Counted from the first letter of the stretch, positions 7,861 through 64,000 are shown. The stretch: 64,000 bases of DNA from Candidatus Thorarchaeota archaeon (GCA_004524445.1 SDNP01000007.1:33141-97140); one strand, 5' to 3'. Translations and numbers: made by a program. Notes: a model not told the origin generated them from the letters alone.

Positions 7861-7970
7861 GGGCCCGTGGCATAGACTGGTTATTGCACCGCTCTGATAT
7901 GCGGGCGAGAGTCATAATCGCCCCCTCCGAGAGGCGGGGGCCGAGTGTTCAAATCACTCCGGGCCCACCA
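7861..7970 (+). tRNA. tRNA-Ile(GAU) with 32-nt intron at 37/38 (7900-7931)
   Basis: Acceptor GGGCCCG/CGGGCCC plus ACCA; anticodon GAT at 7896-7898; T-arm GAGTG-TTCAAAT-CACTC; BHB-like junctions [CTGA]TA|T and [TCCG]AG|A. Confidence 0.9.
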
Positions 7971-8077
7971 CTTCCTTTCTGATGGCTCATTTCCCTCGAT
8001 AACACCGGGATGCGCATTGATTATATCCGTGCAGTCATATGTCCTGTTTAGATAATTGTGCTGTTCATTGATTTGCC

Positions 8078-8542
8078 ATGAGTCCCAATGACAAAGAGAA
8101 CTCAGATTTTGAAAATCTTACCAGCAGATTAGAAGAAAGACTATCTGGTGATACCCACAACAGTTTTGCTAATGGTCAGCTAAATGAAATACGGTCGGAT
8201 AATAACTCGTTGGTCATTGACAAGTATAGAACCTCATTACTACTCATCTATCGAAATCAATGTCCTTATTGTAAGCAGCTCATGCCAAAATTAGCAGAGC
8301 TTGCCAAAGACTATCGGTCTCAAGTCTTTTTCGCAAAGATAAACATAGATACCAATAGAGATGTTGCGGAAAGATTTCACGTACTGGGAGTTCCATTAGT
8401 CATTGCTCTGAAGAAGGGACACCCAGTGGATCGTATCGAAGGACTTCGCAATATTGCGGTTTATGATGATTGGATAAACCAAATCCATAGAGGCATCAGG
8501 CCAACGAATTTCGAAAAGGGTTCTCTAAGCAAATTGGAATAA
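8078..8542 (+). CDS. Thioredoxin family protein
   Basis: CPYC active site, FFAKINID, cis-Pro in GVP. Confidence 0.9.
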   Translation: MSPNDKENSDFENLTSRLEERLSGDTHNSFANGQLNEIRSDNNSLVIDKYRTSLLLIYRNQCPYCKQLMPKLAELAKDYRSQVFFAKINIDTNRDVAERFHVLGVPLVIALKKGHPVDRIEGLRNIAVYDDWINQIHRGIRPTNFEKGSLSKLE

Positions 8543-8586
8543 CACGTGGGCAAAATCTCTTGGAACTAACTGTCGCCTATGCATAT

Positions 8587-10488
8587 CTACAGCTTCAGAG
8601 TGAATACGTATTCCTCATCAGCCATTGATAGTTTGCTTTCAACCACTTTTCCGGTCTTATGTAAGAATCGAATCATGGGTTGATTTCGTGGATGCACGTA
8701 TGCTATGAATGCATCTACTCCTTTGCTCTTTGCTATGCGCATAAGATGGTTGAGCAAGAATGTGCCAATACCCTTGTCCTGATACTCGTCTTGAATGACG
8801 ATAGCAAACTCCGCTTGGTTTGTGTTTCGATTGAGCAGATACCTTCCAGCACCAATTATCTTCTCCGTTTCACCCTCCCTATCAGGATGAATGACTGCAA
8901 CAATGGACACATCACGATCTTGGTCTACATCATAAAAGTCCTGTAAAGTCTGTCTTCGAAGGCTTCTAAGCGGAGTCAGGAAGCGGAAGAATATGGACTC
9001 CTCTGATAAGTCATAGAAGAGCTCCTTGATTCTGTCGGAATCATCAGGCCTGATTAATCTGAAGTGGACATTGATATCCCCTCCCTCGGGTCCTTGGAAG
9101 GTTTCTTGAGTTTCATATTCCGAAGCAAAGTAGGTTCCTGTCACTTTGAAGGGCACCTGATCTTCGAAGACATACCTCATGTTCTTTGCTGCTTCCAGAA
9201 GTTCATTTCTGAAATCAGGGTGGGCAATAGCTATTAGTGAGAGTACCCGTTCTCGAATGGTTTCCCCGTGTAATGTTGCTAGACCATACTCCGTGATAAC
9301 CACATCAACGTCTCCCCGGGTTGTTACAACTCCAGCCCCCTCACTTAGTCTTGGCACTATTCTGGAAACCTGTCCATCCATAGCAGTTGAACGCATACAG
9401 ATGATGGCTTTTCCGTTGATAGATCTCTCTGCACCACGAATGAAGTCCACCTGACCGCCAATTCCGCTGTAGAATTTATGACCTATTGAGTCTGCACATA
9501 CTTGACCAGTGAGATCAATTTCCAAGGCTGAGTTGATTGCTATCATCTTTCTATTCTGACCAATTATATACGGATCGTTGACGTATGCCGTGTCGCGGAA
9601 CTCAAACATCGGGTTATCGTCGATATACTCGTAAAGCTTCTTTGATCCCATGGCAAAACTTGCAATCACTTTGTCCTTGTTGATACTCTTTTTCCGATTA
9701 TTGACAATTCCATTCTGTATTAGTGGAATAAGACTATCACTGAACATTTCTGTGTGGATGCCAAGGTCCTGAACACCCGTTTCTTGTAGACTATCACAAA
9801 CTGCTTGTGGGAGGGCGCCGATACCGAGTTCCAGTGTAGATTCGTTTTCAATTAAGCGTGCCACATAAGCCCCGATTTGGTCAATAGTTTTCCCGCCTGG
9901 TTCTCCCTCAAATTCCCGTAGAGGCTCGTTATACGGTACCAAATAATCGATATCTCTGACATTGAAAAAAGAATCCCCATGAGTTATGGGCATCTTTTCA
10001 TTTACTTGGGCAATGACTAGATCCGCACTCTCTGCTGCTGATTTTGTAATATCAACTGAGATACCCAGAGAACAATATCCGTGTTCGTCGGGTGGACTTA
10101 CTTGAATGAGAGCTACATCAAGAGGCATTCTTCTTGATCGAAATAGAGTTGGAATTTCAGAAAGCATCATTGGCGTATAATCAGCTCTTCCCTCAGCTAC
10201 GGCCTCCCTTATGTTCTCAAATACAAAAAACGTATTGTGTCTATACTGTGCCTGAAATTCAGGGTCTGCTGAAGGAGTGTCTCCTAAAGTCAGAAGATGC
10301 ACAATCTCGTTGTCAGACATATTCTCTGCATTCTTTGCTAGCTCTTGTACCAAATGATAGGGTACGCCGCAACCTGTACCAAGAAATATTCTAGTTCCGC
10401 GTCTAATCTTCTTGATAGCTGCAGGTGCATTCAAGACCTTCTTCTTGTATTTTTGCATCCACTCTTCGGGGGCCATAATTGTACTCAC
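8587..10488 (-). CDS. Acetyl-CoA hydrolase/transferase fused to C-terminal GNAT acetyltransferase
   Basis: GIHTEMFSD, SGIGGQVDF, VITEYG in N-terminal part; LSEESIFFRF, AEFAIVIQDEYQDKGIGT Pat-type GNAT in C-terminal part. Confidence 0.92.
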   Translation of the reverse strand: MSTIMAPEEWMQKYKKKVLNAPAAIKKIRRGTRIFLGTGCGVPYHLVQELAKNAENMSDNEIVHLLTLGDTPSADPEFQAQYRHNTFFVFENIREAVAEGRADYTPMMLSEIPTLFRSRRMPLDVALIQVSPPDEHGYCSLGISVDITKSAAESADLVIAQVNEKMPITHGDSFFNVRDIDYLVPYNEPLREFEGEPGGKTIDQIGAYVARLIENESTLELGIGALPQAVCDSLQETGVQDLGIHTEMFSDSLIPLIQNGIVNNRKKSINKDKVIASFAMGSKKLYEYIDDNPMFEFRDTAYVNDPYIIGQNRKMIAINSALEIDLTGQVCADSIGHKFYSGIGGQVDFIRGAERSINGKAIICMRSTAMDGQVSRIVPRLSEGAGVVTTRGDVDVVITEYGLATLHGETIRERVLSLIAIAHPDFRNELLEAAKNMRYVFEDQVPFKVTGTYFASEYETQETFQGPEGGDINVHFRLIRPDDSDRIKELFYDLSEESIFFRFLTPLRSLRRQTLQDFYDVDQDRDVSIVAVIHPDREGETEKIIGAGRYLLNRNTNQAEFAIVIQDEYQDKGIGTFLLNHLMRIAKSKGVDAFIAYVHPRNQPMIRFLHKTGKVVESKLSMADEEYVFTLKL

Positions 10489-10653
10489 CTGAGGGTCGTG
10501 CTACATCATTTACCTACCCCCTATATCTATTTCCAAATGCATGTCAACTCAAATGTCACAGTTGGCAATCTCGGAGATCCGTCGGAAGGCTTAAAGTACC
10601 GTTTTAGTCGCTGACGAGTTAACACAAGACAAACTCTATGGTGTGAAATAAAT

Positions 10654-11934
10654 ATGTCTGAATCTGTGGGAAATCGTTACTTAGTCATGCTCGGAGCTAT
10701 CATAGTCCAGTTATGCCTAGGCACCATTTACGCGTGGTCTGAATTCCAGAACACGCTGACTTTAGTAAGTTCTGAAGGTGGCCTCTATGGATGGGCTGCA
10801 CTCAGCACTCAGTGGCCATTTGCTGCCGGTCTTGCATCGTTTGCTATATTTATGGTGATAGCAGGTCGTTGGCAGGATAATATTGGACCACGAAAAGTAG
10901 CCACGTTTGGTGGCATTCTTCTTGGTGCTGGATACTTTCTGGCCTCATTCATTGATACCCTTGCACTCAACGAAATGATGGGAACAATATACTTGGTCGT
11001 CACCTATGGTATAATCGGTGGTGCTGGTATTGGTTTCGCGTATGTCTGCCCAATAGCAGCCCTTGTGAAGTGGTTCCCTGACAAGAAGGGAAGCGTTTCG
11101 GGAATTGCTGTAGCCGGCTTTGGCGGCGGTGCTCTAATATTCCTCTATATTGAGCAGTATTTGATTGAAGCAGCTGGCGGTCTGATTGGTCAACCCTTCC
11201 TCATTCTTGGCATCGTCTATTTAGTCGGTGTTGTGATAGGAGCTCAAATCCTCGTTGAACCTCCCAAGGGGTGGACTCCAGAGGGATACACTCCTCTGGA
11301 AACAACCGCTGATGGGTCTGGCGGTGGAATGCTCCCAGGCGAAATGATTCGCACTGGTACTTTCTGGTTACTCTGGCTTGCCTTCATCTTCGCTGCAACA
11401 GCCGGTCTTATGACTCTCGGTAACGTGAAGAGTGCAGCCGCAGAGGTTGATCCGCTTGTCATACCCCTCGGTCTTGGTGCTGCCATTGGAGGCATCATGT
11501 CGATATTCAATGCCGCAGGTAGAATCTTCTGGGGTTCAGTGTCTGATAAGTTGGGCCGAGTCCTGGCCATGATGCTCATGTTTATTGTGCTTGCGATTGC
11601 GATGTTCACCTTCGGATACATGGTGACACTACCAGCTGCCGAGGGGATGTGGATATCAATCACTGGAATTGCCTCTGTCATTGGCTTTTGCTTCGGCGGA
11701 AATTTTGCCCTTTTCCCGTCTGCAACAGCTGATAACTTTGGCTCTGAGAATGTAGGCAAGAACTACGGAGTAGTCTTCACCGCGTATGGCATTGCAGGCA
11801 TAGTAGGTGCTTTGGTTGCAGGCTCCTTTGTTGATTTCACGGGAAGTTACTCCCTAGCTTTTGTGACCACTGGAATCCTAGCTATCCTAGCAGTGATACT
11901 AACCATCATCTTGAAGCTGAAAGGTAATAACTAG
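10654..11934 (+). CDS. OFA (oxalate/formate antiporter-like) MFS transporter
   Basis: GRWQDNIGPR, KWFPDKKG, GRIFWGSVSDKLGR; about 12 TM helices. Confidence 0.92.
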   Translation: MSESVGNRYLVMLGAIIVQLCLGTIYAWSEFQNTLTLVSSEGGLYGWAALSTQWPFAAGLASFAIFMVIAGRWQDNIGPRKVATFGGILLGAGYFLASFIDTLALNEMMGTIYLVVTYGIIGGAGIGFAYVCPIAALVKWFPDKKGSVSGIAVAGFGGGALIFLYIEQYLIEAAGGLIGQPFLILGIVYLVGVVIGAQILVEPPKGWTPEGYTPLETTADGSGGGMLPGEMIRTGTFWLLWLAFIFAATAGLMTLGNVKSAAAEVDPLVIPLGLGAAIGGIMSIFNAAGRIFWGSVSDKLGRVLAMMLMFIVLAIAMFTFGYMVTLPAAEGMWISITGIASVIGFCFGGNFALFPSATADNFGSENVGKNYGVVFTAYGIAGIVGALVAGSFVDFTGSYSLAFVTTGILAILAVILTIILKLKGNN

Positions 11935-12136
11935 TGATTTGAATTCAGGGGAGAAATTATCTTTCTTCCCTTCTTTTCTTGTTTTTCACTTTTCTAAAGA
12001 CTCGCACTGTATGTACAAGCTGACTACTTCTCAAAAGAATATGTTAGTTATTTTTTTAAAATACGGTGTTGGACAAGCTTTTTATCTCGGAATTTTGCGC
12101 CGCTACAAAAGCATCGACGCTTCTTGGTGACCAAGA

Positions 12137-14122
12137 ATGTCAGAAGATAAAATTACAGTAGTTTCAGGAGAAGAACGTCGGTTTCCGCCTCCTAAGAGCT
12201 TTGTCAAGAAGGCTTACATCAAAAGCCATGAAGAACGAATGAAGCTCTGGAAGGAGTCTATTGAGAAACCCGATGAATTCTGGCTGAAAATCGCAAAAGA
12301 ATTATGTTATTGGAAGAAAGAACCTACTAAGGGTTTTGAATGGAAAAATCCCAAAGAGGCCCGCTTCACTTGGTTTGAAGATGGGGTAACCAACATGGCC
12401 TACAACTGTCTGGACAAGCATGTCGAGGCAGGTAAGGGCGATCAGGTTGCATTAATATGGCAGGGCGAACCCTTGGAAGAGGCAAGAACATTCACATACC
12501 AACAGCTTCTATCTGAAGTTAGCAAGGCTGCGAACGTTTTGAAGAATCTTGGTGTAGAGAAGGGTGACAGAGTCACATTTTACCTCCCAATGATTCCTGA
12601 GCTCGCAATTCTCATGCTGGCTTGTGTACGTATCGGAGCAGTTCACAGCATTGTGTTTGGTGGCTTTAGTTCCGATTCAGTCAAAGATAGAATCCTTGAT
12701 TGTGAGGGTAAAATCCTCATAACTGCAGATGGCTATTACAGAAGTGGTAAGACTATACAGCAGAAGGCTGGTGCTGATGACGCAGTAGAAGGTCTTGATA
12801 TCATCGAGAAGGTTCTCGTTGTCAAGCGTTTGGGTCTAGATATCCCCTGGGATGATGACCGTGATGTCTGGTATCATGAAGAGATGAAAAAGGTTGACGA
12901 CAAATGTGAACCAGAATGGATGAACGCTGAAGACCCATTGTTCATTCTATATACTTCAGGTTCAACCGGCAAGCCAAAGGGTGTTCTGCATACTGTGGGC
13001 GGATATATGGTATACACAACTCACACTTTCCTGAACATCTTCGATTGGCATCCTGGTGATGTCTACTGGTGTACAGCTGACATTGGCTGGATTACCGGGC
13101 ACTCATACATCACATACGGCCCGCTGTCTGCTGGTGCCACAACCATGATGTTTGAAGGAGTACCAACCTATCCGGATGTTGATCGCTTCTGGCTAGAGGT
13201 GGAACGCTGGAAGGTCAATCAATTCTATACAGCCCCAACCGCTATTCGTGCACTTATGCGGTACGGTGAGGAGCCTGTGGAGAAACACGATCTCTCTAGC
13301 TTGAATCTGTTAGGTACAGTAGGAGAGCCAATTAATCCTGCGGCTTGGACATGGTATCATGAAATTGTTGGTAAGGAGAATTGTCCAATTGTGGACACAT
13401 ACTGGCAAACTGAAACCGGCGGTGTAGTAATCACACCCCTTCCAGGTGCGGACGCCACAATTCCAAGCAGTGCCACATTCCCATACTTCGGAATCGACCC
13501 CTTGATTGTAGATGCTGAGGGTAAGGAGTTGGGTGCTGATGAAGGTGGCTACCTATGTATCAGAAAACCATGGCCTGGTCTAATGAGAACGGTCTATGGC
13601 GACCATGAGCGGTTTGTTAATACTTACTGGGCTCAATACAAGGATCCCGAAAGCGGAAACCCGATGTATATGACTGGTGATGGTGCCCGATTCAACGAAG
13701 AGGGCTACTTCTTTATCATGGGACGTATCGACGACGTGCTTAAGGTGTCAGGTCATAGGCTAGGCACAGCCGAAATCGAATCTGCCCTGGTCAAGCATCC
13801 TAAGGTATCAGAAACAGCTGTTGTTGGAATGCCGCATGACATCAAGGGTGAGGCAATTTATTGCTTCGTGACCCTGAAGTCCGGCATTGAAGGCGACGAG
13901 GCTCTCGTTCAGGAACTTAAGAAGCATGTACGTAGCGAGGTAGGCCCCATTGCAACTCCGGAGAAAATCCAGTTTGCAGATGCCCTACCCAAGACCCGTT
14001 CTGGCAAAATCATGAGGAGAATCCTCAAGAAGATTGCAGCAGGTCAGCTTGATGACTTGGGCGATACAACCACCTTGGCTGATCCAACAGTTGTTGAAAC
14101 CCTCATCAAAGAACGTAAGTAG
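12137..14122 (+). CDS. acs: AMP-forming acetyl-CoA synthetase
   Basis: YTSGSTGKPKG, WQTETGG, GRIDD, PKTRSGKIMRR. Confidence 0.97.
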   Translation: MSEDKITVVSGEERRFPPPKSFVKKAYIKSHEERMKLWKESIEKPDEFWLKIAKELCYWKKEPTKGFEWKNPKEARFTWFEDGVTNMAYNCLDKHVEAGKGDQVALIWQGEPLEEARTFTYQQLLSEVSKAANVLKNLGVEKGDRVTFYLPMIPELAILMLACVRIGAVHSIVFGGFSSDSVKDRILDCEGKILITADGYYRSGKTIQQKAGADDAVEGLDIIEKVLVVKRLGLDIPWDDDRDVWYHEEMKKVDDKCEPEWMNAEDPLFILYTSGSTGKPKGVLHTVGGYMVYTTHTFLNIFDWHPGDVYWCTADIGWITGHSYITYGPLSAGATTMMFEGVPTYPDVDRFWLEVERWKVNQFYTAPTAIRALMRYGEEPVEKHDLSSLNLLGTVGEPINPAAWTWYHEIVGKENCPIVDTYWQTETGGVVITPLPGADATIPSSATFPYFGIDPLIVDAEGKELGADEGGYLCIRKPWPGLMRTVYGDHERFVNTYWAQYKDPESGNPMYMTGDGARFNEEGYFFIMGRIDDVLKVSGHRLGTAEIESALVKHPKVSETAVVGMPHDIKGEAIYCFVTLKSGIEGDEALVQELKKHVRSEVGPIATPEKIQFADALPKTRSGKIMRRILKKIAAGQLDDLGDTTTLADPTVVETLIKERK

Positions 14123-14136
14123 AATGAATAGTATAT

Positions 14137-14178
14137 GGGCGGTACACTCCGCCCTCATCTCTCTTTATTTTTGATTTT
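14137..14178 (+). terminator. Putative terminator after acs
   Basis: GGGCGG...CCGCCC hairpin followed by T-rich tract. Confidence 0.5.
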
Positions 14179-14356
14179 GAAACCCCTATAACTAGGCTGG
14201 ACCATCCTGTATCCGGTGCGAGGTATTATTTTAGGTACCAACCAACAGCTCTCGCTGGTGGTAGAATCACAGGATCGTTTTCAATATGCATATATCACAT
14301 GCATTCGTTTATTACTGGACATTGTCAATAGTTAATCAACTTGGAGAATATGGGAA

Positions 14357-14905
14357 ATGAATAAGAAAGCCGCCGCTGTAATTGTCATCATAATCGGTGC
14401 TATTGCGCTTGCCCCAGTTGCGATGTATGGAGTGGAAGTACAAGTTGCCGATGTCAGCATGACTCTTGGCATTAGCAGTATATTAGGTTCTTTAAGGTTC
14501 AATCCGGCACAGGTTCCGAGCTTCGATATTGGGCTTCAACAGGTACAGATTGATGTAAGTTCTCAAAGCTCCTATGAATATGCACTCTCACGTATAACCG
14601 GAAGAACAGAAACAAGTGAATCGAACTCGAACACTCCTGCAGATGTTCAGATAACTATAGAATTTACGCTGACTACGCCATCCAATCAAACTATAGTATT
14701 TACTCTGAATCCCGGACAGATGCAAGGAACTGGAGAAAAACAGGTGCGCACTATTTTGGGTCCAGACGAGGGTATCTCTGTAACGGGCGAGTTTCATTTG
14801 ACCATAGTCATCTCGATTCAGATAACACCCCCGACCTTTGATAACCCTGTAGTTGACTTAGAGCTCAACCCTGTAAATCGCACTTTCAGCATTCCGAGCA
14901 ATTGA
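14357..14905 (+). CDS. Hypothetical membrane-anchored/secreted beta-rich protein
   Basis: N-terminal MNKK plus hydrophobic segment; Ser/Thr-rich beta-strand pattern. Confidence 0.7.
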   Translation: MNKKAAAVIVIIIGAIALAPVAMYGVEVQVADVSMTLGISSILGSLRFNPAQVPSFDIGLQQVQIDVSSQSSYEYALSRITGRTETSESNSNTPADVQITIEFTLTTPSNQTIVFTLNPGQMQGTGEKQVRTILGPDEGISVTGEFHLTIVISIQITPPTFDNPVVDLELNPVNRTFSIPSN

Positions 14906-15002
14906 ATACGTCAAGATTAGATGTGGAGAGCCCAGGCTCTCCCTAACTCCTTCATTTTGGCTGCTAAGTGTCCCTATAAATCCAAATTTCAGTGATTTTT
15001 CC

Positions 15003-15215
15003 CTATTGTCCTTTATTAGGTGGAAGACGACCTCTCAACGTTCTACGGTATTGAGTCAGTTGGATTGAACAACCAGTCACTTCACCCTGCTCCATAGTAA
15101 TGCCTCCCGTGTATTTACCAGGTTCTAGATTGTAGAAGATTTTCACATATTTTGGTACATAAACGCCAAGATGCTTCTTATCGAATCGGTCCAATCTAAG
15201 AAATCTAATGGACAA
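15003..15215 (-). CDS. Small hypothetical protein (may extend through TAG to 14964)
   Basis: TTG at 15215 just downstream of fdhD; protein-like composition. Confidence 0.45.
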   Translation of the reverse strand: MSIRFLRLDRFDKKHLGVYVPKYVKIFYNLEPGKYTGGITMEQGEVTGCSIQLTQYRRTLRGRLPPNKGQ

Positions 15216-15240
15216 GTAACAGAAAAACCTGGAAATCTCT

Positions 15241-16038: not shown

Positions 16039-16077
16039 TGCTAATCATTCCGGTTCCGTTCCGAGTCGATAAAAGGA

Positions 16078-17024: not shown

Positions 17025-18083
17025 ATGCAAATCGGAATAGAGTTTGTCCCAGACAAACCAATTGACAAAATCATCAAATGGACCAAACTTGCGGAAAAGG
17101 CCGGTTTCGACAATGTCTGGATAACTGACCATTACAATAACAGAAATGTATGGGCAACACTAGCTGCATTAGCTTTGAAGACTGATAAAATCATGATGGG
17201 GCCTGGAGTGACTAACCCATATCATATCAATCCCGCATTGATTGCGTCTGCAGCTGTGACAATAAATGAGCTTAGCAATGGACGCGCGCTCATCGGAATT
17301 GGCGCAGGTGACAAAGTCACGCTTAACGCATTAGGAATAAAATGGGAAAAACCTGTTAGTGCAGTCGTTGAAGCTATCGAGTACATAAGAACGCTAACTG
17401 ATGGCAGTAGTTACAAAAAGGATGGAAGAGTCTTCAGTGTGAAGAAAGCAAAGCTGGCTTGTGTGAAAAAGGAGCCTATACTAGATAAGGATGGCAAGCC
17501 GGTGCTGGAAGACGGCAAGAAGGTTAAGCGAGGACCGAAGATTCCAATATATGCCGGTGCTCAAGGTCCAATGATGTTGCGGAACACAGCAGAAGTAGCT
17601 GATGGCATTCTCATCAACGCAAGTCATAAGAAAGACTTTGAAATTGCCATTAGGAAGATTGAAGAAGGTGCCAAGAAGGCTGGCCGTACTCTCAATGATA
17701 TCGACATTTCTGCTTATACTGCTTTCAGCATTGGGGAAACTCGAAAGGATGCCCTCAAAGGAGATACCAAAATAGTCGTGGCCTTTATCGTTGCTGGATC
17801 TCCAGATCTTGTTCTCAAGCGGCACAGCCTAGACATGGATGAGTGCAACAGGGTCCGAGAACTACTTCAGCAAGGTAATTTCAAAGACCTGCCGGATGCT
17901 GTGACCGACGAAATGATAGACGCTTTTGCTGTAGTTGGAGATGCACATCAATGTATCGAGCGCATCCAATCTCTTGAGGAGGTAGGTGTTACTCAGTTCA
18001 TAGTTGGCTCACCAATTGGTCCTGACAAAGCCAAGGCAATAGAACAAGTAGGTAAAAAAATCATCCCGCACTTCAAAGATTAA
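17025..18083 (+). CDS. mer: F420-dependent methylene-H4MPT reductase
   Basis: WITDHYNNR, GPGVTNPY, GIGAGD, GAQGP, LINAS, GSPIGPD. Confidence 0.95.
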   Translation: MQIGIEFVPDKPIDKIIKWTKLAEKAGFDNVWITDHYNNRNVWATLAALALKTDKIMMGPGVTNPYHINPALIASAAVTINELSNGRALIGIGAGDKVTLNALGIKWEKPVSAVVEAIEYIRTLTDGSSYKKDGRVFSVKKAKLACVKKEPILDKDGKPVLEDGKKVKRGPKIPIYAGAQGPMMLRNTAEVADGILINASHKKDFEIAIRKIEEGAKKAGRTLNDIDISAYTAFSIGETRKDALKGDTKIVVAFIVAGSPDLVLKRHSLDMDECNRVRELLQQGNFKDLPDAVTDEMIDAFAVVGDAHQCIERIQSLEEVGVTQFIVGSPIGPDKAKAIEQVGKKIIPHFKD

Positions 18084-36000: not shown

Positions 36001-36002
36001 GA

Positions 36003-48279: not shown

Positions 48280-48421
48280 TGGTGCCGAGGAGGAGATTTG
48301 AACTCCTGAACTCCTGCGAGAACGGATGTCTCATCAGGATCGAGTCAACAGATCTTGAGTCCGTCGCCGTTCTACGTTGTCCAGCCCTGGGTGCTGAACA
48401 TGACCGCTTGGCTACCTCGGC
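48280..48421 (-). tRNA. tRNA-Leu(CAA) with two introns: D-loop (48372-48401, 30 nt) and 37/38 (48328-48353, 26 nt)
   Basis: Acceptor GCCGAGG/CCTCGGC plus ACCA; long variable arm; anticodon CAA; BHB junctions [CTCA]AG|A with [TGAG]AC|A and [GCGG]TC|A with [ACGT]AG|A. Confidence 0.9.
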
Positions 48422-52441: not shown

Positions 52442-52597
52442 GCTTAGCACATCAATGAATTGGAACCTTTGCACTCTATATTTGGCACTAGTCAGAACTT
52501 TGGGCAACTTCCGTTGTCCATAACTCTTTTAGGAGTGCCTCTTTGTTCGAGTCAGAAGTGGATACAGTAATCTGCACCCTTGCTGACATCAAGGAGA

Positions 52598-55075: not shown

Positions 55076-55080
55076 AGGTA

Positions 55081-55548: not shown

Positions 55549-55569
55549 GAAAAAGGCTTTCGCTACCTG

Positions 55570-56013: not shown

Positions 56014-56037
56014 CCCATAAAGTATCGTTTGAATAGG

Positions 56038-56829
56038 TCAAAGCCCTTCCGGAACTAACTCTGTCTTTGCGGCTTTTACTACAAGGAAGAACGGAATTCG
56101 TCGTTCTCGGTCAAAGTATTCGCTCTCAGTAATAGGCAAGGGTTCACGTAACTCCTCGACAACAAATCCAGCCTGTTTCAAAGCAGAAAAGTATGTTGAA
56201 AATGTTCTATGATAGAATACTATCGGCTCAGGAAATCTCTCTCCATCCCTTGTTTTCCAATATCGACTGTATTCTGTTTCTTTAAAGTACTCATCGATTT
56301 TGAAATAGCGTCCTCTGCGTCTATTTGTATCAGGATCTTTCTTGTCAAGCTCCCATTCACCTGGGCCGTAGAAATCAAATGCTGGATGCACCAGTGAAAT
56401 CACAAGTTCTCCTCTAGGCTTGAGCGCCCTGTTGAATTCGTTCAATGCATCTTCAAGACAGGGGACATTCAAGAGTACCAAGTTGCAAAGAACCTTATCA
56501 TAGAATGCATTCATGATTGTCTTCATTGAGCAGACGTCATCAGTTCTATAACTGATACTCAGACTCTCATCCGTCTTCTCTTTGCTAAGTTCAATCAAGC
56601 GAGAAGACACATCGATTCCAGTGACATGCGCCCCCTTGCGAGCATAATGTCTAGAAAGATAACCTTCTCCACATCCGGCATCGAGGACATTTAGTCCTTC
56701 AACATCACCCATCAGCTCCTCTACACATGGATTTAGAATCTCTTGATGGTGCGGAGTGCCTTTTCCACCGATGAGTTCAGAATAAGCTAAAGCATTCTCT
56801 TCCCATTGGGAAACAATATCATCTTTCAT
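56038..56829 (-). CDS. Class I SAM-dependent methyltransferase
   Basis: VLDAGCGEG, GIDVS, LKPRG. Confidence 0.9.
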   Translation of the reverse strand: MKDDIVSQWEENALAYSELIGGKGTPHHQEILNPCVEELMGDVEGLNVLDAGCGEGYLSRHYARKGAHVTGIDVSSRLIELSKEKTDESLSISYRTDDVCSMKTIMNAFYDKVLCNLVLLNVPCLEDALNEFNRALKPRGELVISLVHPAFDFYGPGEWELDKKDPDTNRRRGRYFKIDEYFKETEYSRYWKTRDGERFPEPIVFYHRTFSTYFSALKQAGFVVEELREPLPITESEYFDRERRIPFFLVVKAAKTELVPEGL

Positions 56830-56837
56830 TATGATGC

Positions 56838-57233
56838 TTAGATACGACTCCAGACCGCTCCCATACGCTTCCCGGTTTCATAGATGACAGAAGTCATTGC
56901 CTCTGCTGAAGCCAGGCCCGCCTCAACAGCCAGTTTCATGATGGGAGTATGAGCAACATAGATGCCATCTTCCTCCTGATAAACCACGAAACTGCAAGGA
57001 AAGAGCGTTCCCACATCTTTAGAAGCATCCAATCCCATCTTAGCCAGTTCCGGCTTGCATCCCAGTATGAAGGCATATTTTGGATAGTCTTCGATACCCA
57101 AGTTCTCTTTGAAAACATTGGATAAATCTTTCTTTAAAAGAACAGGAAATTTTTCCGCTGCTAGGGCATTCTCCACTTTCTTTATTGCCTCTTCAAATGA
57201 ACATGATACCTTTTTACGCAATACTTCTACCAT
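56838..57233 (-). CDS. DUF302 family protein
   Basis: ILGCKP, LFPCSFVVY. Confidence 0.82.
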   Translation of the reverse strand: MVEVLRKKVSCSFEEAIKKVENALAAEKFPVLLKKDLSNVFKENLGIEDYPKYAFILGCKPELAKMGLDASKDVGTLFPCSFVVYQEEDGIYVAHTPIMKLAVEAGLASAEAMTSVIYETGKRMGAVWSRI

Positions 57234-57296
57234 AACGATTCAATATGCATAGTGCCTATAAAAAGAATACATTTTGTGAATTGACGGAGTAAGAGA

Positions 57297-57405
57297 TGGT
57301 GGACCGGGCGAGATTTGAATTCGCGCCAAGCGTCTCTTAGAGACACAAGGTCTCGCGACCTTCTCGATGCGAACGAGACGATCTACCGGACTAATCTACC
57401 GGCCC
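57297..57405 (-). tRNA. tRNA-Ala(CGC) with 32-nt intron in the T-arm at 53/54 (57320-57351)
   Basis: Acceptor GGGCCGG/CCGGTCC (G3:U70) plus ACCA; anticodon arm TCTCG-TTCGCAT-CGAGA; junctions [CGCG]AG|A and [CGCG]AA|T. Confidence 0.9.
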
Positions 57406-57467
57406 ATTCTCTTTTCCGATAGCGTGGGTTCCCCTCTTAAAATTTTGTCCTAGTGAACAACAAGAGT

Positions 57468-57767
57468 TCATACTTCAATACCAAAGGCTTGAGAGAATCT
57501 CTCTATTTTCACGAATTCACTGAGAAACTCTCGTCCCTTTCCAGTCAATTTGTAGATGCGACTATTCTCGTCTTCCTGTGTTTCGTTGACTAGTCCCTTC
57601 TCTACTAGCTCCTCCAGATATTGCGTTAACCTATCATGTGAGAGATTGGCCGCATAGAGGATCTTTGTGGGGCCTGCTCCTAGCTCACCCTCCTTTTTGA
57701 TAGCGCGCATCATGTCTGCAAGGATGCGTACCTTTGAGCGATAAGAGCGCTTGTTACTCATCTCCAC
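57468..57767 (-). CDS. Winged-helix transcriptional regulator
   Basis: YRSKVRI, PTKILYAANLS, YKLTGKGREF. Confidence 0.85.
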   Translation of the reverse strand: MEMSNKRSYRSKVRILADMMRAIKKEGELGAGPTKILYAANLSHDRLTQYLEELVEKGLVNETQEDENSRIYKLTGKGREFLSEFVKIERFSQAFGIEV

Positions 57768-58395
57768 TTGCCTTCCGTAGCAATATTAGGAATGATGAGA
57801 AACCTAGAAACTGGGCTACTTGGCTCAGTGCATATCCTCGAAGGTCGGTCAGACTGAAGATACCAAGGATATGGCTCACCAGAAGCAGTACAAAACCAAT
57901 CAAGACATACAACGCGTATCTCGTTTTCACAGCTAAGTAGTTCATCAAATTCTGAAGAACTATAATCACTAGAACTATTATAGCAAGCATCTCAAGCGTC
58001 GGTGAAACTAGGATTGGTATTGCTAAAGCCAATGCCAACGGTGCCTGCTCGGGCACATCTTCCTTTCTGCTGTGTCGTGTTGCTACTGCAAATACCAGAT
58101 ATGCCATGACTCTCATGACGCCATATGCGACAATAACTACGCCCATCAGTGTTTGAGCGGAAGGGCTAGAGGGCCCTCCTTGAGCTGCTAGAACAAAAAA
58201 ATAGAGCGTACCCAAAACCCTGCCAAACATGCCTGCAGATAGGACCAGAAAGCCTGTGGAAAGGTCTGATAGCCGCTTTTGACCTGTGAGTCTGAATGCT
58301 TTGTTTGCATAATGAGACACCATCAATGCGATTACGCCACTAATAGTTTCTAGTATCAAATCCACCCTGATCCAGGATAACAGCACATTTTGCAT
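57754..58395 (-). CDS. Hypothetical polytopic membrane protein
   Basis: 6-7 TM helices; ATG at 58395 inferred; overlaps regulator start. Confidence 0.7.
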   Translation of the reverse strand: MQNVLLSWIRVDLILETISGVIALMVSHYANKAFRLTGQKRLSDLSTGFLVLSAGMFGRVLGTLYFFVLAAQGGPSSPSAQTLMGVVIVAYGVMRVMAYLVFAVATRHSRKEDVPEQAPLALALAIPILVSPTLEMLAIIVLVIIVLQNLMNYLAVKTRYALYVLIGFVLLLVSHILGIFSLTDLRGYALSQVAQFLGFSSFLILLRKASGDE

Positions 58396-58768
58396 TGCCT
58401 TGCACTTCTGTAGGTTCCTCAATTTAATTGATATGATGAATGGATGAATCATCCCCTTTTGTCTGATGTGGTGATATATTATCATCGAACTAGGGAAAAT
58501 GCGCAAATAGAAGCAGACTCGAGAATAGACTTACTATATGAATCATCTAGTGCATTCGTTCATTTTGTCTATATATCAAACCTACGTAACAATTCATAGA
58601 GGATCCGTCGGATTATAGAGCATTCTAGAAATGACGGGTCATTATGATGGAAAACAACTACTGCTGCAAAACGGCGGGTAAACCCCGCCATTCCATCATT
58701 TTTTCTCTGTCACCACGAGAGAGAGGCTAATAAGAGAAGATCCTGATATCTCTCCTGAGTGCAGGAAA

Positions 58769-59056
58769 ATGGAAAACAAATGCTCATTATGTGGCTCTCC
58801 TATTCGGCAGGATGAGGCCAGAAAAATCAGAAGAGAAACAGGTGGAGGTCTCATATGTAGAAAATGCATGGCTGAGAAGGGCATTCCTAAGAAGTCCTCC
58901 CCTCTTCTGTGTGAGAGATGTGAATCCCCGCTCACCAAGGAGCGGATTCGAATTATCAACCGGGCAAGAGAGATGGGCGAATCCCCGCCAAGAATCTGTG
59001 AGGAATGCGCCTCGAAAATTGATCCCAAGTTGCCGGGCAGACGGCTTCATGACTGA
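58769..59056 (+). CDS. Small double zinc-finger protein
   Basis: Four CxxC pairs (CSLC, CRKC, CERC, CEEC). Confidence 0.65.
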   Translation: MENKCSLCGSPIRQDEARKIRRETGGGLICRKCMAEKGIPKKSSPLLCERCESPLTKERIRIINRAREMGESPPRICEECASKIDPKLPGRRLHD

Positions 59057-59094
59057 TGCTGCTAGTGAAATTCTCAACTCACCCAGTCATCTGG

Positions 59095-61704
59095 TCAGTC
59101 TTCTCTGTCCTTCATTTGCGCCTCGATTTTTGACATTCTGTCCTTCAGTTCCCGGTTCTCTCTCTCAAGTTTCTCCACACTTTTTTTGAGAGAGTCTACT
59201 TCGTCCTTACCCTGCTTCTTCTTGAGCTCTCGAATAGAAACTCTGGCAGCACGTACCAAAGAGGACTCAACCTCTGTTTCAGCAATTCTTGTTAGTGTCG
59301 AAATGAGAGATGAATCACCGTAGGTCTTAGTAGCCAATATGGCGGCGCCTCTCACTCGGTATGACTTATCATACAGAAGTTTCTCCAGTATCTCCTTAAT
59401 GTCCGAGTGTTTCTTCTTGTATTTCTTTCCTAGCTTTACCAACAATTCCGGAATAATCCTTCTCAGGTAGTCATCTGTACCCTTCTCTAGGTATTTTTTG
59501 ACAATATCAATTGCCTTTTCCTTGTCAGTTTCTCCAAGTCCTTTTAGATATCCTTGTTTTATGATATTATGCCAGCTCTCTGGAGCGTTTTTCAACCCTC
59601 TTTTGAGGAACTCCAATGCTTGTTCATGTTTTGTCTTTCCGATCGATGCAGCTGCAGAAGACACCACAAAGTAGGACTCGTTATCCTCTGATAGCTTCTT
59701 GAGCGTTTCAAACGCTCTTTCATCTTGGAAGAATTCACCCAGCGCTCTGGCAACCGCAGTTCGTGCTCTTGAGTCTGGCAAGTCTGCGCCTTTCAGAAGA
59801 TGGTCAAGTGCGCTGTCAGTCTTGACCTCTCCAAGGGCTTTTGCTACCTCAGCTTGAAGTCCCCAAAACTCGTTTCTTAGCAGGATTTCTCCCAAAGCTT
59901 CGAGACTCTCTTGACTCCCCTTCTTACCCAATGCATGAACCGCCTTTATGCGCTGCATAAGATTCCCCCCTCTTCGGAGCTGTTCTATCCACATTGACTC
60001 TGGCTTCTCGATATCCCAATCCATCAATACGGCATAATCGGGGTCAACAACAATCTGCTCAGGTGGGTTCTTGACCGGATAATAGAAACTATGAATCCGC
60101 TCAGTGACCTCCATAGTGTACCTGGTTCTAGAACCGTCTTCTGCAACAAACTCCACCGTAAGTGGAAAACGGAACGCCTCTGGCGTCATGTCATCATCAT
60201 GGTCGTGTGTCTGTTCTATCTTGACCAGTGCGTGTCCAAGTTTCTGGTCATGTGAGCATTTTATTTTGCATTCTGGATAACCTGCCTTGTACAACCATTG
60301 CTCAAAGAACCACCCATAGTCCTCACCAGTCATTTCGGTAAACAGGCTCTCCAAATCATGTGTGTAAACAGATTGGTATGCATATCTTGTCAGCCACTCT
60401 CCAAGAATCTCCCACCACCTCTCTTCACCCACCAGATGCTTCAGCATATAGTATCTCCAAGCCGCTCCGGGGTACAGATGCCGATCAAAGACATCAGATC
60501 CCCGTTCCCACTCGTTCTTTACGATTGGTCTCCGATACTTCTTCTTGTCTTCTTCGAAGTATGCCTTCTGTTTTCCATACTGGTCGTATAGATACTCATC
60601 CATGCCCTTGTCATGCAGCTTCCACTCATTTTGCATCTGAGTGCCCCACCCCTCATTGAGCCAACCATGACTCCATGTTCTACAGGTCACCAAGTCTCCA
60701 CCCCATTGGTGGGCAAGCTCATGAGCCACAAGGGCATCAGACTGGTAGTCTTTGTGGGTCTTCTCATCATGAAGTGTTCCATCAGTCTGAGTTGTAGCAC
60801 TGACATTCTCCATTCCTCCTATCGTGAAATTCGCTGCAGTGACTTGCGCATATTTCGCCCAGGGAAATTTCACTCCGAGCTTCTCTTCGAAGAATCTAAT
60901 CATCTCTGGCGTCTTTCCGAAGGAACGATACACCGTCTCCTTGTCCCACTTCTCATGAGCGTAGTAACTGACCTCAAGCCCATCGTGTTCTTCTTTATAC
61001 TCTACATACTTGGATGCTGCCATTGTCAGTAGATAGGCTGGTATTGGCAAATCCTGGAGCCAATGAAACGTTTCCGTTCCATCATCATTCTTACGATGCT
61101 CCTTGAGTCTCCCATTGCTCATTGCGAAGTAGCCATCAGGTACGGTGAGTATAACCTGAACAGGGAACTTGTGGCTCGGATTGTCATAAACGGGGACTAC
61201 ATATCGTGCATAATCATCCTGCATCTGTGTCCAAAAACTCGACTCGATATCGGGGAATTCTGGGCATGGGTTTGTGAAGTACAACCCTCCCTGTGGGTTA
61301 TCTAGGGTGTACGTGAACGTCAGTTCTTCCTTCTGGTCCCTCTTTAGGGGCTTTGAGAGATATACAACCAAACGGTTGTCTGGTTCATAGGTGTCGAATC
61401 CAAGTTCATTACCGTTGGAGTCGCTTATCCCGCTGATATCCATACCGGCTGCATGGAAGGTCATTCGATTCGTTTCTGGTACTATGCAACTGACCTCCAT
61501 CTTTGAGATGGCATCAACACGTTCGTGCTCTATATCCACCATCCAGTCAATGGTTAACATCTTGATGTCATACTGTCTTGCTGGTGCCCACTGGGGCTTG
61601 GCAGTAGGAAACGTGAAGCTCTCACGGTCTGCCATCAGATGATATTCGGCTTGAGCCATATCTCCGCGCATCAGGCTCTCAAGATAATCATGAAAATCGG
61701 GCAT
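59095..61704 (-). CDS. M1 aminopeptidase with C-terminal HEAT repeats and coiled coil
   Basis: GGMEN, HELAH-x18-E (LNEG), repeated ALG HEAT units, terminal heptads. Confidence 0.93.
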   Translation of the reverse strand: MPDFHDYLESLMRGDMAQAEYHLMADRESFTFPTAKPQWAPARQYDIKMLTIDWMVDIEHERVDAISKMEVSCIVPETNRMTFHAAGMDISGISDSNGNELGFDTYEPDNRLVVYLSKPLKRDQKEELTFTYTLDNPQGGLYFTNPCPEFPDIESSFWTQMQDDYARYVVPVYDNPSHKFPVQVILTVPDGYFAMSNGRLKEHRKNDDGTETFHWLQDLPIPAYLLTMAASKYVEYKEEHDGLEVSYYAHEKWDKETVYRSFGKTPEMIRFFEEKLGVKFPWAKYAQVTAANFTIGGMENVSATTQTDGTLHDEKTHKDYQSDALVAHELAHQWGGDLVTCRTWSHGWLNEGWGTQMQNEWKLHDKGMDEYLYDQYGKQKAYFEEDKKKYRRPIVKNEWERGSDVFDRHLYPGAAWRYYMLKHLVGEERWWEILGEWLTRYAYQSVYTHDLESLFTEMTGEDYGWFFEQWLYKAGYPECKIKCSHDQKLGHALVKIEQTHDHDDDMTPEAFRFPLTVEFVAEDGSRTRYTMEVTERIHSFYYPVKNPPEQIVVDPDYAVLMDWDIEKPESMWIEQLRRGGNLMQRIKAVHALGKKGSQESLEALGEILLRNEFWGLQAEVAKALGEVKTDSALDHLLKGADLPDSRARTAVARALGEFFQDERAFETLKKLSEDNESYFVVSSAAASIGKTKHEQALEFLKRGLKNAPESWHNIIKQGYLKGLGETDKEKAIDIVKKYLEKGTDDYLRRIIPELLVKLGKKYKKKHSDIKEILEKLLYDKSYRVRGAAILATKTYGDSSLISTLTRIAETEVESSLVRAARVSIRELKKKQGKDEVDSLKKSVEKLERENRELKDRMSKIEAQMKDRED

Positions 61705-61932
61705 GTCTATTTCCTCCGGAGCATCTGGAAATATGCTCCATGGTCATGTATGGTGTTCCTGCAACAGGTGCGTATTAAGCTCGTGGTTTGCGCTGAAAAT
61801 CTACCCCTTCCCACACAAAGACATGTCCTGAGAATCCGTATCCATGGACAGTGATGTCTCATGGGACTATTCTGAAACGCTTTGTCGCAGGACTTATTAC
61901 CTCAAAACGTAGAGGTATAGTGTTGCTCCTTG

Positions 61933-61947
61933 GAAAGGTTTTTATTC
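61933..61947 (+). promoter_or_regulatory. Possible BRE/TATA of the rRNA transcript
   Basis: GAAAGG followed by TTTTTATT about 320 nt upstream of 16S. Confidence 0.3.
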
Positions 61948-63139
61948 TTACTCCACGGGGCAAGATTGCTTCGCGTCCAACGGTGTCATGTCGGATGCTA
62001 TTGGCAATTGCCAAGCGATGATGACAAATGATTTCCAGACGCGAGTACAAAATGCGGACGTGAGATAGACTGGCGCACGAGTGCCAGAATCCCCTCAGGT
62101 CTAAGATATGCTCAACAGTGTGCAGGTAGTATTGGGTAAGACATCCCGTCTAACCTCGTCATGCCTGTACTTCATCAAGTTTAATGTGTGCTTTAGTAAT
62201 GTGTACAATTTGCCGACTCTAGCATCGGCAGCAGACCCTTGCCGGTTGTGTACATGGTAAGATCAACTCTAGTTGATCCTGCTAGAGGACACTGCTATCG
62301 GCTTGGGGTTAAGACATGCAAGTGTAACGAACTCACATCCGAGTTCGTCGCAAACGGCTCAGTAGTGTCGTTAACCTACCCTGTAGAGGCGGAAAACGCC
62401 GGGAAACTGGCGGTAATTCGCCATAGGAGCATTGTTCTGGAAATGATATTGCTCTCAAATGGGTGCTCTAGGTATGTAGAGCTCACCGCTGCAGGACGGG
62501 ACGGCAATGGATCATACTTGTAAGTGGGGTAATTGCCCACTTAGGTTATGACCCGCGCGGGCGATGTAAGTCGTGGCCCGGAGAAGGGAACTGAGACAAG
62601 GTCCCTAGCCCCACGGGGCGCAGCAGTTACGAAACCTCACCAATGCGCGAAAGCGTGAGTGGGCCAAGCCGAGTGACGGGAGATAATTCCGTCTGTGGCG
62701 GTACCGTAGTATGGTCCGCTAGAAAGGAGAGGGCAAGGCTGGTGCCAGCCGCCGCGGTAAAACCAGCTCTTCGAGTGGTGTCCATGATTATTGAGCTTAA
62801 AGCGTTCGTAGCCGGTTTAGTAGGTCCCTGCTTAAATCCGGCCGCCTAACGGTCGGCCTGGTAGGGATACCGCTTTACTTGGGGATGGGAGACGGTGACG
62901 GTATTCCAGAGGTAGGGGTGAAATCCTATGATCTCTGGAGGACCACCAGTGGCGTAGGCGGTCGCCGAGAACATGCCCGACGGTGAGGGACGAAACCCAG
63001 GGGAGCGAATCGGATTAGATACCCGAGTAGTCCTGGGCGTAAACCATGCCCGCTAAGTGTTGCATTGGCCACGAGCCATTGCGGTGCTGTAGCAAAAGCG
63101 ATAAGCGGGCCGCTTGGGAAGTACGGTCGCAAGACTGAA

Positions 63140-63208
<69 letters not shown>

Positions 63209-63613
63209 GCTTGCGGTTTAATTGGACTCAACGCCGGAAATCTTACCTGCCCAGACAGCCGAATGAGAGCCAGGTTGATGACCTTGCTCGACGAGCTGAG
63301 AGCTGGTGCATGGCCATCGTAAATTCGTGCCGTGAGGTATCAGCTTAAGTGCTGCAACGAATGAGATCCCTGCCACCTAATTGCCAGCCGGGGGCTTCGG
63401 CCCTGCCGGGGCACATTAGGGGGACCGCCATCGAGAAGATGGAGGAAGGTGGGGGCCACGGTAGGTCAGTATGCCGCGATATGGGCAGGGCCACACGCGT
63501 GCTACAATGGCCGGGACAATGTGTTACAACGCCGAGAGGCGAAGTCAATCACTAAACCCGGTCGTAGTCGGAATCGGGGGTTGGAACTCACCCCCGTGAA
63601 CCTGGAATCCCTA

Positions 63614-63643
63614 TCATCTGTAGACTCCCTATAGATGGGGAAA
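63614..63643 (+). other. 16S intron 2 (30 nt, after about 1346)
   Basis: Removal restores GGAATCCCTAGTA; hairpin CATCTGTAG/CTATAGATG; [TCCC]TA|T and [GGGA]AA|G. Confidence 0.9.
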
Positions 63644-63683
63644 GTATCCGCGTGTCACTAACGCGCGGAGAATACGTCCCTGC

Positions 63684-63713
63684 CGGCGCCGAGATTACCT
63701 CTGTGCCGGGGAA
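63684..63713 (+). other. 16S intron 3 (30 nt, after about 1386)
   Basis: Removal restores GTCCCTGCTTCTTGCACAC; [CCCT]GC|C and [GGGG]AA|T. Confidence 0.88.
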
Positions 63714-63816
63714 TTCTTGCACACACCGCCCGTCGCTCCATGCGAGCGGGTTTGGGGTGAGGCTGTGTCCATTGGGCGCAGACGAATCTTGGGCTCGCAA
63801 GTAGGGAGAAGTCGTA

Positions 63817-63846
63817 ACTGAGTTACGCTTCGTGACTTGGCGATCA
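63817..63846 (+). other. 16S intron 4 (30 nt, after about 1499)
   Basis: Removal restores GAAGTCGTAACAAGG; hairpin CTGAGTTACG/CGTGACTTGG; [GTCG]TA|A and [CGAT]CA|A. Confidence 0.9.
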
Positions 63847-63878
63847 ACAAGGTATCCGTAGCGGAAGCTGCGGATGGA

Positions 63879-63910
63879 AGAAGGTGAGAGTCATTCTCGT
63901 CTTCCATTAT
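63879..63910 (+). other. 16S intron 5 (32 nt, after about 1531)
   Basis: Removal restores TGGATCACCTCCT; hairpin GAAGGTGAGA/TCTCGTCTTC; [GATG]GA|A and [CATT]AT|T. Confidence 0.9.
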
Positions 63911-64000
63911 TCACCTCCTAAGACTTTTTGTCTCTAAGAGGCAAAAGCAGTAGAAGTGCGGGTATGACGGGTTAGCGGTGCAACGTAGGTTGCTCCTGAA

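Follow-up and report, generated by a model that had tools for sequence, protein, structure and literature searches.

Nine probable bulge-helix-bulge mini-introns of near-uniform length in the 16S rRNA and tRNA genes of a Candidatus Thorarchaeota contig

The four stable RNA genes found in a 64-kb stretch of a Candidatus Thorarchaeota genome, those for 16S ribosomal RNA (rRNA), tRNA-Ile, tRNA-Leu and tRNA-Ala, carry nine short inserts. These are very probably true bulge-helix-bulge (BHB) introns of the archaeal type, belonging to the smallest class, which consists of a hairpin only. The stretch, referred to here as the window, is the final 64 kb (64,000 nucleotides, nt) of a 97-kb contig (SDNP01000007.1:33141-97140) belonging to a metagenome-assembled genome of 2.79 Mb in 64 contigs (GCA_004524445.1). 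This source genome is labelled G000, and the related genomes with which it was compared are labelled G001, G002 and so on. The G000 assembly is 90% complete with 5% contamination, and 23S rRNA and several tRNAs (Trp, Lys-CTT, Ser-GCT and Ser-CGA) are not part of it. No further stable RNA was found in the window at E<=1 by Infernal with Rfam covariance models. Eight of the nine introns are 30 or 32 nt long, and one construction plan serves introns in rRNA and tRNA genes alike.

This plan begins with 1 nt of the 5' bulge and continues with a hairpin, an exon-complementary tail of 4 nt and 2 nt of the 3' bulge, which together give the BHB geometry. In each intron the tail (intron bases -6 to -3) is complementary to its own upstream exon, pairing with exon bases -6 to -3 at all four positions in six introns and at three of four in the remaining three. 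The seven introns that lie outside tRNA position 37/38 have hairpins of 23 or 25 nt, and the inner helices comprise either 9 base pairs (bp) capped by a 5-nt loop or 10-11 bp capped by one of 3-5 nt. Those of the 16S introns have predicted folding energies of -8.7 to -12.9 kcal/mol and take up the intron core; the introns stay below 50 nt and contain no open reading frame (ORF). The outer exon-exon helix measures 5-6 bp in both 37/38 introns, 0-1 bp in six of the seven others and 3 bp at 16S site 908. Since introns outside the anticodon loop have at most a weak helix of this kind, their motif is relaxed, and most of the introns lack the outer helix of at least 2 bp, beside the 3' bulge, that characterises the strict hBHBh' motif, which EndA enzymes of all types can cleave.

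Five introns reside in the 16S rRNA gene (62266..63919, plus strand; RF01959, 1212.6 bits), the sole copy in the assembly, located at the contig end. Before hand correction, Infernal placed the gene at 62266-63852, with a match about 110 nt overlong and its final 70 nt poorly aligned to the Rfam covariance model; reading the sequence against the model consensus revealed five clean insertions. The E. coli positions given for them were counted by hand from that consensus and are approximate. The first intron (63140-63169, 30 nt), between positions 908 and 909, has three of four central-helix pairs, a 9-bp hairpin with a 5-nt loop and the 3-bp outer helix. It is followed by an intron at 1346/1347 (63614-63643, 30 nt) whose central helix is complete (GGGA with TCCC) and whose hairpin has 9 bp, and by one at 1386/1387 (63684-63713, 30 nt), beside the decoding centre, with a 4/4 central helix and a hairpin of 5+3 bp around one mismatch. 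The last two, at 1499/1500 (63817-63846, 30 nt) and 1531/1532 (63879-63910, 32 nt), likewise pair 4/4 and have hairpins of 10 and 11 bp; the latter lies directly before the anti-Shine-Dalgarno tail. All five are on the plus strand. Deleting the last two extends the gene to 63919, and removal of the final one restores the 3' end, in which GGA is joined to TCACCTCCT.

The other four introns interrupt tRNA genes. The tRNA-Ile(GAT) gene (7861..7970, plus strand; Infernal 49.2 bits, called at 7861-7967; called with an intron by ARAGORN) contains a 32-nt intron at the canonical position 37/38 (7900-7931), with a 3/4 central helix and a 5-bp outer exon helix. In tRNA-Ala(CGC) (57297..57405, minus strand; Infernal 48.1 bits, called at 57300-57405), which has the G3:U70 pair, a 32-nt intron (57320-57351) separates positions 53 and 54 at the border of T-stem and T-loop, and its CGCG tail pairs 4/4 with CGCG of the exon. 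The tRNA-Leu(CAA) gene (48280..48421, minus strand) was overlooked by every program used (Infernal and ARAGORN) and was recognised by eye in an intergenic stretch. It carries two introns. The one in the D-loop (48372-48401, 30 nt) consists of 1 nt, a 23-nt hairpin (-10.3 kcal/mol; helix of 8 bp), ACGT and AG, and combines a 3/4 central helix with the absence of an outer helix, which makes it a relaxed motif. The one at 37/38 (48328-48353, 26 nt) has a 4/4 central helix and a 6-bp outer helix; it is the sole intron of the window that is neither 30 nor 32 nt long, and its removal restores the anticodon stem ACGGA/TCCGT. The 3' CCA is encoded in all three tRNA genes (7968-7970, 48280-48282 and 57297-57299).

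That the inserts form a pattern beyond chance follows from several agreeing lines of evidence: tRNA intron lengths that come out the same with and without the motif, a spliced 16S length equal to that of intron-less relatives, and matching exon junctions in those relatives. For the tRNAs, every deletion of one or two segments was scored for the cloverleaf that it leaves behind (four stems and 12 conserved bases, maximum 33), at first with a BHB filter and then without any motif. The spliced tRNAs are near-perfect, reaching 32/33 for tRNA-Ile, 33/33 for tRNA-Ala and 32/33 for tRNA-Leu minus its two introns. The motif-free search returned the same single length for tRNA-Ile, for tRNA-Ala and for 14 other tRNAs of G000; 32 nt is the only length that it allows for the tRNA-Ile intron, and the tRNA-Ala solution is likewise unique. 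ARAGORN had been considered as the only judge of spliced candidates but was dropped, since it accepted too many false solutions. For the rRNA, the spliced 16S amounts to 1501 nt, relatives without introns measuring 1499-1502 nt, and for every one of the five sites there are relatives that hold the identical exon junction with a gap of 0. A hairpin at 62463-62489 was tried as a sixth 16S intron and rejected as a native helix that has no BHB motif and belongs to the 1501-nt spliced 16S, because the five introns (152 nt) already cover all of the length above that of intron-less relatives.

The structure is also maintained under sequence change. In an alignment of the 30-nt introns at site 1499 from seven genomes, six of the nine stem pairs have changed on both sides, yet 94.5% of cells are paired, compared with 24-54% when the partner strand is slid; the central helix persists in 92.9% of cells. 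None of 500 shuffles reached the covariation score of this site. Orthologous introns at site 1346 in G001 and G002 show compensatory stem changes as well.

The same size preference extends to the tRNA genes of the whole genome. Among 43 candidate tRNA loci, obtained by combining Infernal and ARAGORN, about 28 contain introns and about 15 do not. The 31 introns detected include 13 of 30 nt and 8 of 32 nt (together 21/31), the others measuring 19, 20, 20, 24, 26, 29, 33, 34, 35 and 61 nt. For D-loop introns, length and borders are ambiguous unless the BHB motif is used; among the 16 introns whose length is uniquely fixed without the motif, 10 are of 30 or 32 nt. Positions include the D-stem, the D-loop (six introns), the variable loop, the T-stem, the 53/54 junction (in three different tRNAs) and the T-loop. 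The longest intron, of 61 nt, occupies position 37/38 of tRNA-Met(CAT) (G000:C33:114676-114813) and folds as two tandem hairpin modules; it may represent one mini-intron inserted in or beside another.

An earlier sequence-only reading of the window had described nine introns in four RNA genes, eight of them of 30 or 32 nt, with one stereotyped architecture and tails tailored to their targets, and the exact coordinates, the geometry common to all nine and the pairing of every tail with its exon bear this description out; the inserts fit mini-introns of the tRNA type that have no ORF. It had also stated that every stable RNA gene in the window is invaded. This holds in the window only, because intron-less tRNAs, including those for Thr-GGT and Pro-TGG 1.5-4.7 kb upstream on the same contig, lie outside it. 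Lengths spread broadly over the rest of the genome had been named as an outcome that would speak against tight size selection; the distribution has tails, and its peaks at 30 and 32 nt are sharp. Selection for a constant hairpin length would maintain this size, within which stems vary by compensatory substitutions.

A route for removal can be outlined from the enzymes that G000 encodes. In the primary transcript, the 4-nt tail would pair with exon bases 3-6 nt upstream of the 5' splice site, creating the central 4-bp helix. One cut site would then lie in the 3-nt bulge on each side, with the 23- or 25-nt hairpin as inner helix, and the ligase RtcB would join the exons and probably circularise the intron. 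All nine introns are presumed to be spliced in this manner. RtcB, which the sequence-only reading had suggested looking for, is present as an open frame of 518 amino acids (aa). The splicing endonuclease EndA is represented by two paralogues outside the window, each with PF01974 and PF02778. EndA-alpha (P0001, 187 aa) matches the catalytic subunit of the Aeropyrum pernix enzyme (3P1Z_B) from end to end (E 7.7e-50). Its Tyr, His and Lys motifs align to that subunit (YRKGPGKDHAPF and SVRKK), and its Crenarchaea-specific (L1) loop aligns without a gap (GQPVGIRKPKEPVFDKP versus GQPLDVEKPRGADFEGP), placing the K of IRKPKE opposite the K of VEKPRG. EndA-beta (P0002, 209 aa) has both domains and lacks His at the aligned catalytic place.

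Judged from these alignments, the predicted EndA of G000 is of the (alpha-beta)2 architecture, with the L1 loop and its lysine. Two paralogous subunits, one of them without the catalytic His, as well as the loop and lysine, are likewise features of the (alpha-beta)2 enzymes of A. pernix (3P1Z/3AJV) and Pyrobaculum aerophilum (2ZYZ). In contrast to the short beta subunits of Crenarchaea, P0002 is of full length, carries an acidic N-terminal extension and is nearest to the Methanopyrus and Methanocaldococcus enzymes. Asgard EndA, including that of a Thorarchaeote, has been characterised as (alpha-beta)2 with an L1 loop tied to a broad substrate range (Kaneta 2018, PMC5829648). By analogy, the loop of P0001 would confer a similarly broad range, in agreement with the earlier proposal of an EndA of relaxed specificity.

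Comparison of the 16S gene with 60 related genomes, in which sites were measured and genes aligned, revealed small insertions at eight sites across the family, 33 of 36 being 29-33 nt long; the counts across relatives are not independent. Occupancy is patchy, and many relatives have one intron or none. G002, from another genus, is occupied at all five sites of G000, and G001, of the same genus and with 94% 16S identity, has introns at 1346, 1499 and 1531 and none at 908 or 1386. The 1386 intron is present in G002, G003 and G024, and site 1531 holds introns of 30-33 nt in G001, G002, G033, G004 and G031. Site 908 is the most varied: relatives have introns of 30-47 nt there, large introns of 740-900 nt that encode LAGLIDADG domains (G031, G020 and G009), or no insertion. 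The forms of 45-47 nt include one of 47 nt, in G019, which has both ends in common with the large introns, so that the small introns at 908 plausibly descend from endonuclease-bearing ones. The origin of the introns, as far as it can be resolved, is mixed, with the small 908 forms looking like leftovers of endonuclease introns.

A similar patchiness is seen for tRNA-Ala, which many relatives encode about 5 kb upstream of 16S. The intron at 53/54 of this tRNA recurs in G001, G008 and G020 and is missing from the syntenic gene of most other relatives. Judged by lengths only, tRNA precursors of G001, G004 and G019 cluster at 101-110 nt (116-117 nt where a long arm is present), about 30 nt above mature size, and many of those of G037, from another family of the same order, are only 15-22 nt above mature size.

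Copying between genes was assessed by comparing hairpin cores of the same length in register, against a null of permuted stem pairs and loop bases. The D-loop introns of the paralogous tRNA-Arg(TCG) and tRNA-Arg(GCG) have 20 of 25 core bases in common. The 16S 1531 intron (63879-63910) and the tRNA-Ile intron (7900-7931) agree at 17 of 25, including GAGAGTCAT, where the null gives a mean maximum of 12.9; this pair provides the only likeness above the null between different genes. All other pairs are at the null (mean 6.3 versus 6.0), and the third-best pair is already at that level. Transposing families of tRNA introns in Thermoproteales consist of copies at different sites with clear mutual similarity; unlike them, G000 has a single pair above the null at non-homologous sites. 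The comparison thus offers at most one hint of transfer between genes, while quick turnover of the stems would leave room for older copying. As a separate observation, the loop GAGAGTCAY of the 1531 intron is also retained by the introns that G001 and G002 have at this site.

Whether the inserts leave the RNA at all has to be weighed first. They might be retained, either as expansion hairpins of mature RNA or as parts of a decaying pseudogene, and this reading is highly improbable. Splicing has been observed for no Thorarchaeota RNA, and Asgard rRNAs do carry expansion segments (PMC7594248), as this alternative would have it. Retained inserts, however, would interrupt functional regions that are universally conserved: the 1400 decoding region, the junction of helices 44 and 45, the anti-Shine-Dalgarno tail, and the T-loops and D-loops of tRNAs. 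Moreover, every tail pairs with its exon at exact BHB spacing, and the exons show the same degree of conservation as those of relatives without introns, in the only 16S copy of the assembly. Several observations nevertheless weigh against interpreting the nine inserts as introns of one spliced class. Central-helix pairing is just 3/4 in three of the nine, and for a 30-nt insert in tRNA-Thr(CGT), elsewhere in G000, no central helix could be placed. Two metagenome scans returned no spliced form, the only match being a DNA contig from a relative with a different intron set. With 23S rRNA missing from the assembly, half of the rRNA picture is unseen, and we know of no property of EndA or RtcB that accounts for the preference for 30 or 32 nt. 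BHB introns remain the preferred explanation, and the question then becomes how such introns arise and persist. The sequence-only reading favoured an active, protein-free family. Such a family would copy itself between RNA genes, for instance through reverse splicing, reverse transcription and recombination, its tail being re-tailored each time. Patchy presence among close relatives at the five 16S sites and at tRNA-Ala 53/54, uniform size and layout across unrelated hosts, and the 1531/tRNA-Ile pair are all in line with such a family. Gain and loss among relatives are seen, but, the tRNA-Arg paralogues aside, the other pairs resemble one another as little as shuffled hairpins do. The assembly, at 90% completeness, yielded no reverse transcriptase domain, and a study of other Asgard lineages found no general route of spread by copying, mobile elements or reverse transcription (preprint 10.64898/2026.10.13.758758). 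The similarity test is weak in both directions, given that fast compensatory change of the stems could erase likeness. An active family of this kind therefore appears quite unlikely.

An explanation that involves nucleases is compatible with BHB splicing and would add a reason for the introns' existence. According to it, through collaborative homing or immunity, the 16S introns would persist and spread because they break the recognition sites of LAGLIDADG enzymes (908) and of an RNA-guided TnpB encoded behind 16S (1346, 1499 and 1531); alleles lacking an intron would be cleaved, with repair from copies that have one. Covering three 16S sites for TnpB, it is given a modest probability. Three relatives have LAGLIDADG ORFs at 908, as described above. 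G002, which has the same five introns as G000, encodes a 588-aa protein with a Cas12f1-like TNB domain 11-12.6 kb behind its 16S gene (G002:C2 stretch, 11175-12941). This TnpB-like gene is followed by three units (segments at 12960-13120), each composed of GGTCGG(A/G) and 13-16 nt: CTAGGGATTCCGGGTT, CCTTGTTACGACT and GATCACCTCCTAAGAC. These three segments equal intron-less 16S across junctions 1346, 1499 and 1531. Each target stretch in 16S is preceded by GGATA or GGATG, the intron lies 1, 6 and 2 nt into the match, and the exons of G000 are identical there. A scaffold plus 1499-guide pattern, with 0-1 mismatch, occurs in 8 of 37 family genomes, and G001 retains exactly the introns at 1346, 1499 and 1531 and not the other two. 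However, three of the eight guide-pattern genomes have no 1499 intron (G022, with an exact match, and G003 and G019, with one mismatch), and the G001 copy is decayed. The G000 assembly contains no match spanning any spliced 16S junction, although the contig ends about 80 nt behind 16S. The TnpB homologue of G000 (594 aa, G000:C8:38075-39859, minus strand of the stretch examined; 51% identical to the 16S-linked protein of G002) carries a different guide: its scaffold ends in GGGTCGG, followed by TGCATGCAGCCAATCAC, for which the assembly has no target. That target could lie in the unassembled 23S, or the sequence could simply be flanking DNA. Site 1386 and all the tRNA introns are left unexplained; guide-like matches to spliced tRNA junctions in G000 are at chance level. 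A 19-nt match to 16S on G000 contig C14 was considered as a guide and discarded, as it lies within a coding frame. Such evidence on the spread of the introns as these sequence comparisons provide points to protein helpers, namely the LAGLIDADG genes and TnpB guides of relatives, rather than to a protein-free family.

A more speculative extension, itself rather unlikely, would treat the 30/32-nt hairpins not as relics but as minimal spliceable plugs in a genetic conflict. They would split the sites of nucleases (TnpB at 1346, 1499 and 1531, LAGLIDADG at 908), and cutting of unplugged alleles would drive their spread by repair copying. Their length would then be that of the shortest hairpin which Thorarchaeota EndA still processes reliably within a folding rRNA, and tRNA genes might perhaps be affected likewise.

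With regard to homing systems already known, the TnpB-like gene of G002 and its segments equal to intron-less 16S, beside GGATR, resemble the nucleases guided by omega-RNA. They differ from those systems in that several putative guides stand in a row behind one gene and in that the predicted targets lie in an essential host gene rather than in a transposon donor joint. Homing-endonuclease introns, for their part, encode a LAGLIDADG ORF, for which 30-32 nt leave no room; such ORFs were met only at site 908 in the three relatives named above. A further trace of TnpB in G000 is a zinc-ribbon fragment (158-aa frame, G000:C57:1692-1760) about 630 nt from the intron-bearing tRNA-His gene (C57:2394-2487); no guide matching spliced tRNA-His was found.

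Similar introns might also occur in coding DNA. The sequence-only reading had pointed out that 30 nt is a multiple of three, so that mini-introns in mRNAs would hide as 10-aa insertions. A strict genome-wide scan, which demanded full 4/4 pairing of the tail and at least 7 bp of stem and whose controls shifted the exon strand of the central helix 6 or 9 nt out of place, gave no excess of the layout outside RNA genes: 49 candidates at 30 nt compared with 40-52 in controls, and 18 at 32 nt compared with 14-15, with G:U pairs raising the background of the scan so that a handful of real cases could escape. In addition, Cbf5, a classical host of mRNA introns, is an uninterrupted open frame of 343 aa in G000. 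The idea of hidden mRNA introns accordingly gains nothing from the scan.

The elements closest to the 16S introns are the hairpin-only BHB introns below 50 nt known from the 16S genes of Thermoproteales, Desulfurococcales and Aigarchaeota, where 13 loci, including 908, have been described (Jay and Inskeep 2015, PMC4496867). Both sets lack ORFs, consist of hairpins that keep the BHB motif in conserved stretches of 16S, and occur together with homing-endonuclease introns, which use the same or nearby sites, and 908 is common to the two. The introns described here differ in belonging to the Asgard class Thorarchaeia rather than to the TACK archaea, in occupying four sites (about 1346, 1386, 1499 and 1531) outside those 13 loci, in numbering five per gene, in being nearly all 29-33 nt long across the family, and in following a size rule that also applies to tRNAs.

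The tRNA introns have counterparts as well. A heavy load of non-canonical tRNA introns has been reported for Atabeyarchaeia and Freyarchaeia (Valentin-Alvarado 2024, PMC11291895). As in these lineages and in Thermoproteales (Sugahara 2008, cited in PMC11291895), the introns of G000 affect many genes, often outside 37/38 (D-arm, variable loop and T-arm) and sometimes several per gene; they sit at BHB motifs, are overlooked by standard tRNA finders and point to repeated gains without an identified route. The load in G000 is lower: introns affect about 65% of genes, at about 0.7 per gene, whereas the figures for Atabeyarchaeia and Freyarchaeia are 92-95% and about 2.2. Lengths are sharply peaked at 30 and 32 nt, compared with the medians of 22-23 nt given for Asgard tRNA introns in the preprint cited above, which covers neither Thorarchaeia nor rRNA. 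A literature search found no papers on mini-introns in Thorarchaeota or in Asgard rRNA. Neither the kind of element nor the enzyme is new, then; novelty appears to lie in the lineage, in four of the five sites, in how many introns one gene holds and in the 30/32-nt rule common to rRNA and tRNA.

These introns have practical as well as evolutionary implications. The five in the 3' third of the sole 16S gene underlie the 907/926 primer, 1392-1406 and 3'-end regions, all in wide use for primers and probes; introns in such places can make amplicon surveys overlook the lineage and lead rRNA annotation astray. Several genes were missed or drawn wrongly by standard tRNA finders, and the tRNA sets of such genomes are undercounted because genes like that for tRNA-Leu(CAA) escape these programs. 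How Asgard archaea, the nearest known relatives of eukaryotes, gain and tolerate introns in their RNA genes is relevant to early intron evolution. That the 30/32-nt rule is kept despite sequence drift points to some constraint that lies either in the splicing machinery or in how introns originate, and the TnpB lead in relatives supplies a concrete candidate reason why gene-less introns persist.

Some further observations were made in passing. A selenocysteine tRNA (TCA, 91 nt) was called by ARAGORN at G000:C49:39356-39446, a shape that the cloverleaf scorer does not contain. The G012 bin holds two 16S fragments, one on C33 that is 95% identical to G000 and has a near-identical 908 intron, and another (C2 comparison) that is 86% identical; this bin probably mixes two organisms. 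Finally, the last 60-76 nt of 16S are repeated in dispersed, minus-strand copies in G002 and G015, none having been seen in G000. By sequence match to 16S, they lie within G002:C14:36500-49000 (at 962-1001, 7105-7163, 9636-9695 and 11496-11569 of that stretch) and in a stretch of G015:C54 (at 6175-6244 and 17534-17595). These copies hold helix 45, GGATGGA, an intron-like hairpin of 30-32 nt corresponding to the 1531 intron, TCACCTCCTAAG and part of the trailer, and they sit among unrelated accessory genes for PIN and HNH proteins, an ABC transporter and a HAD hydrolase.

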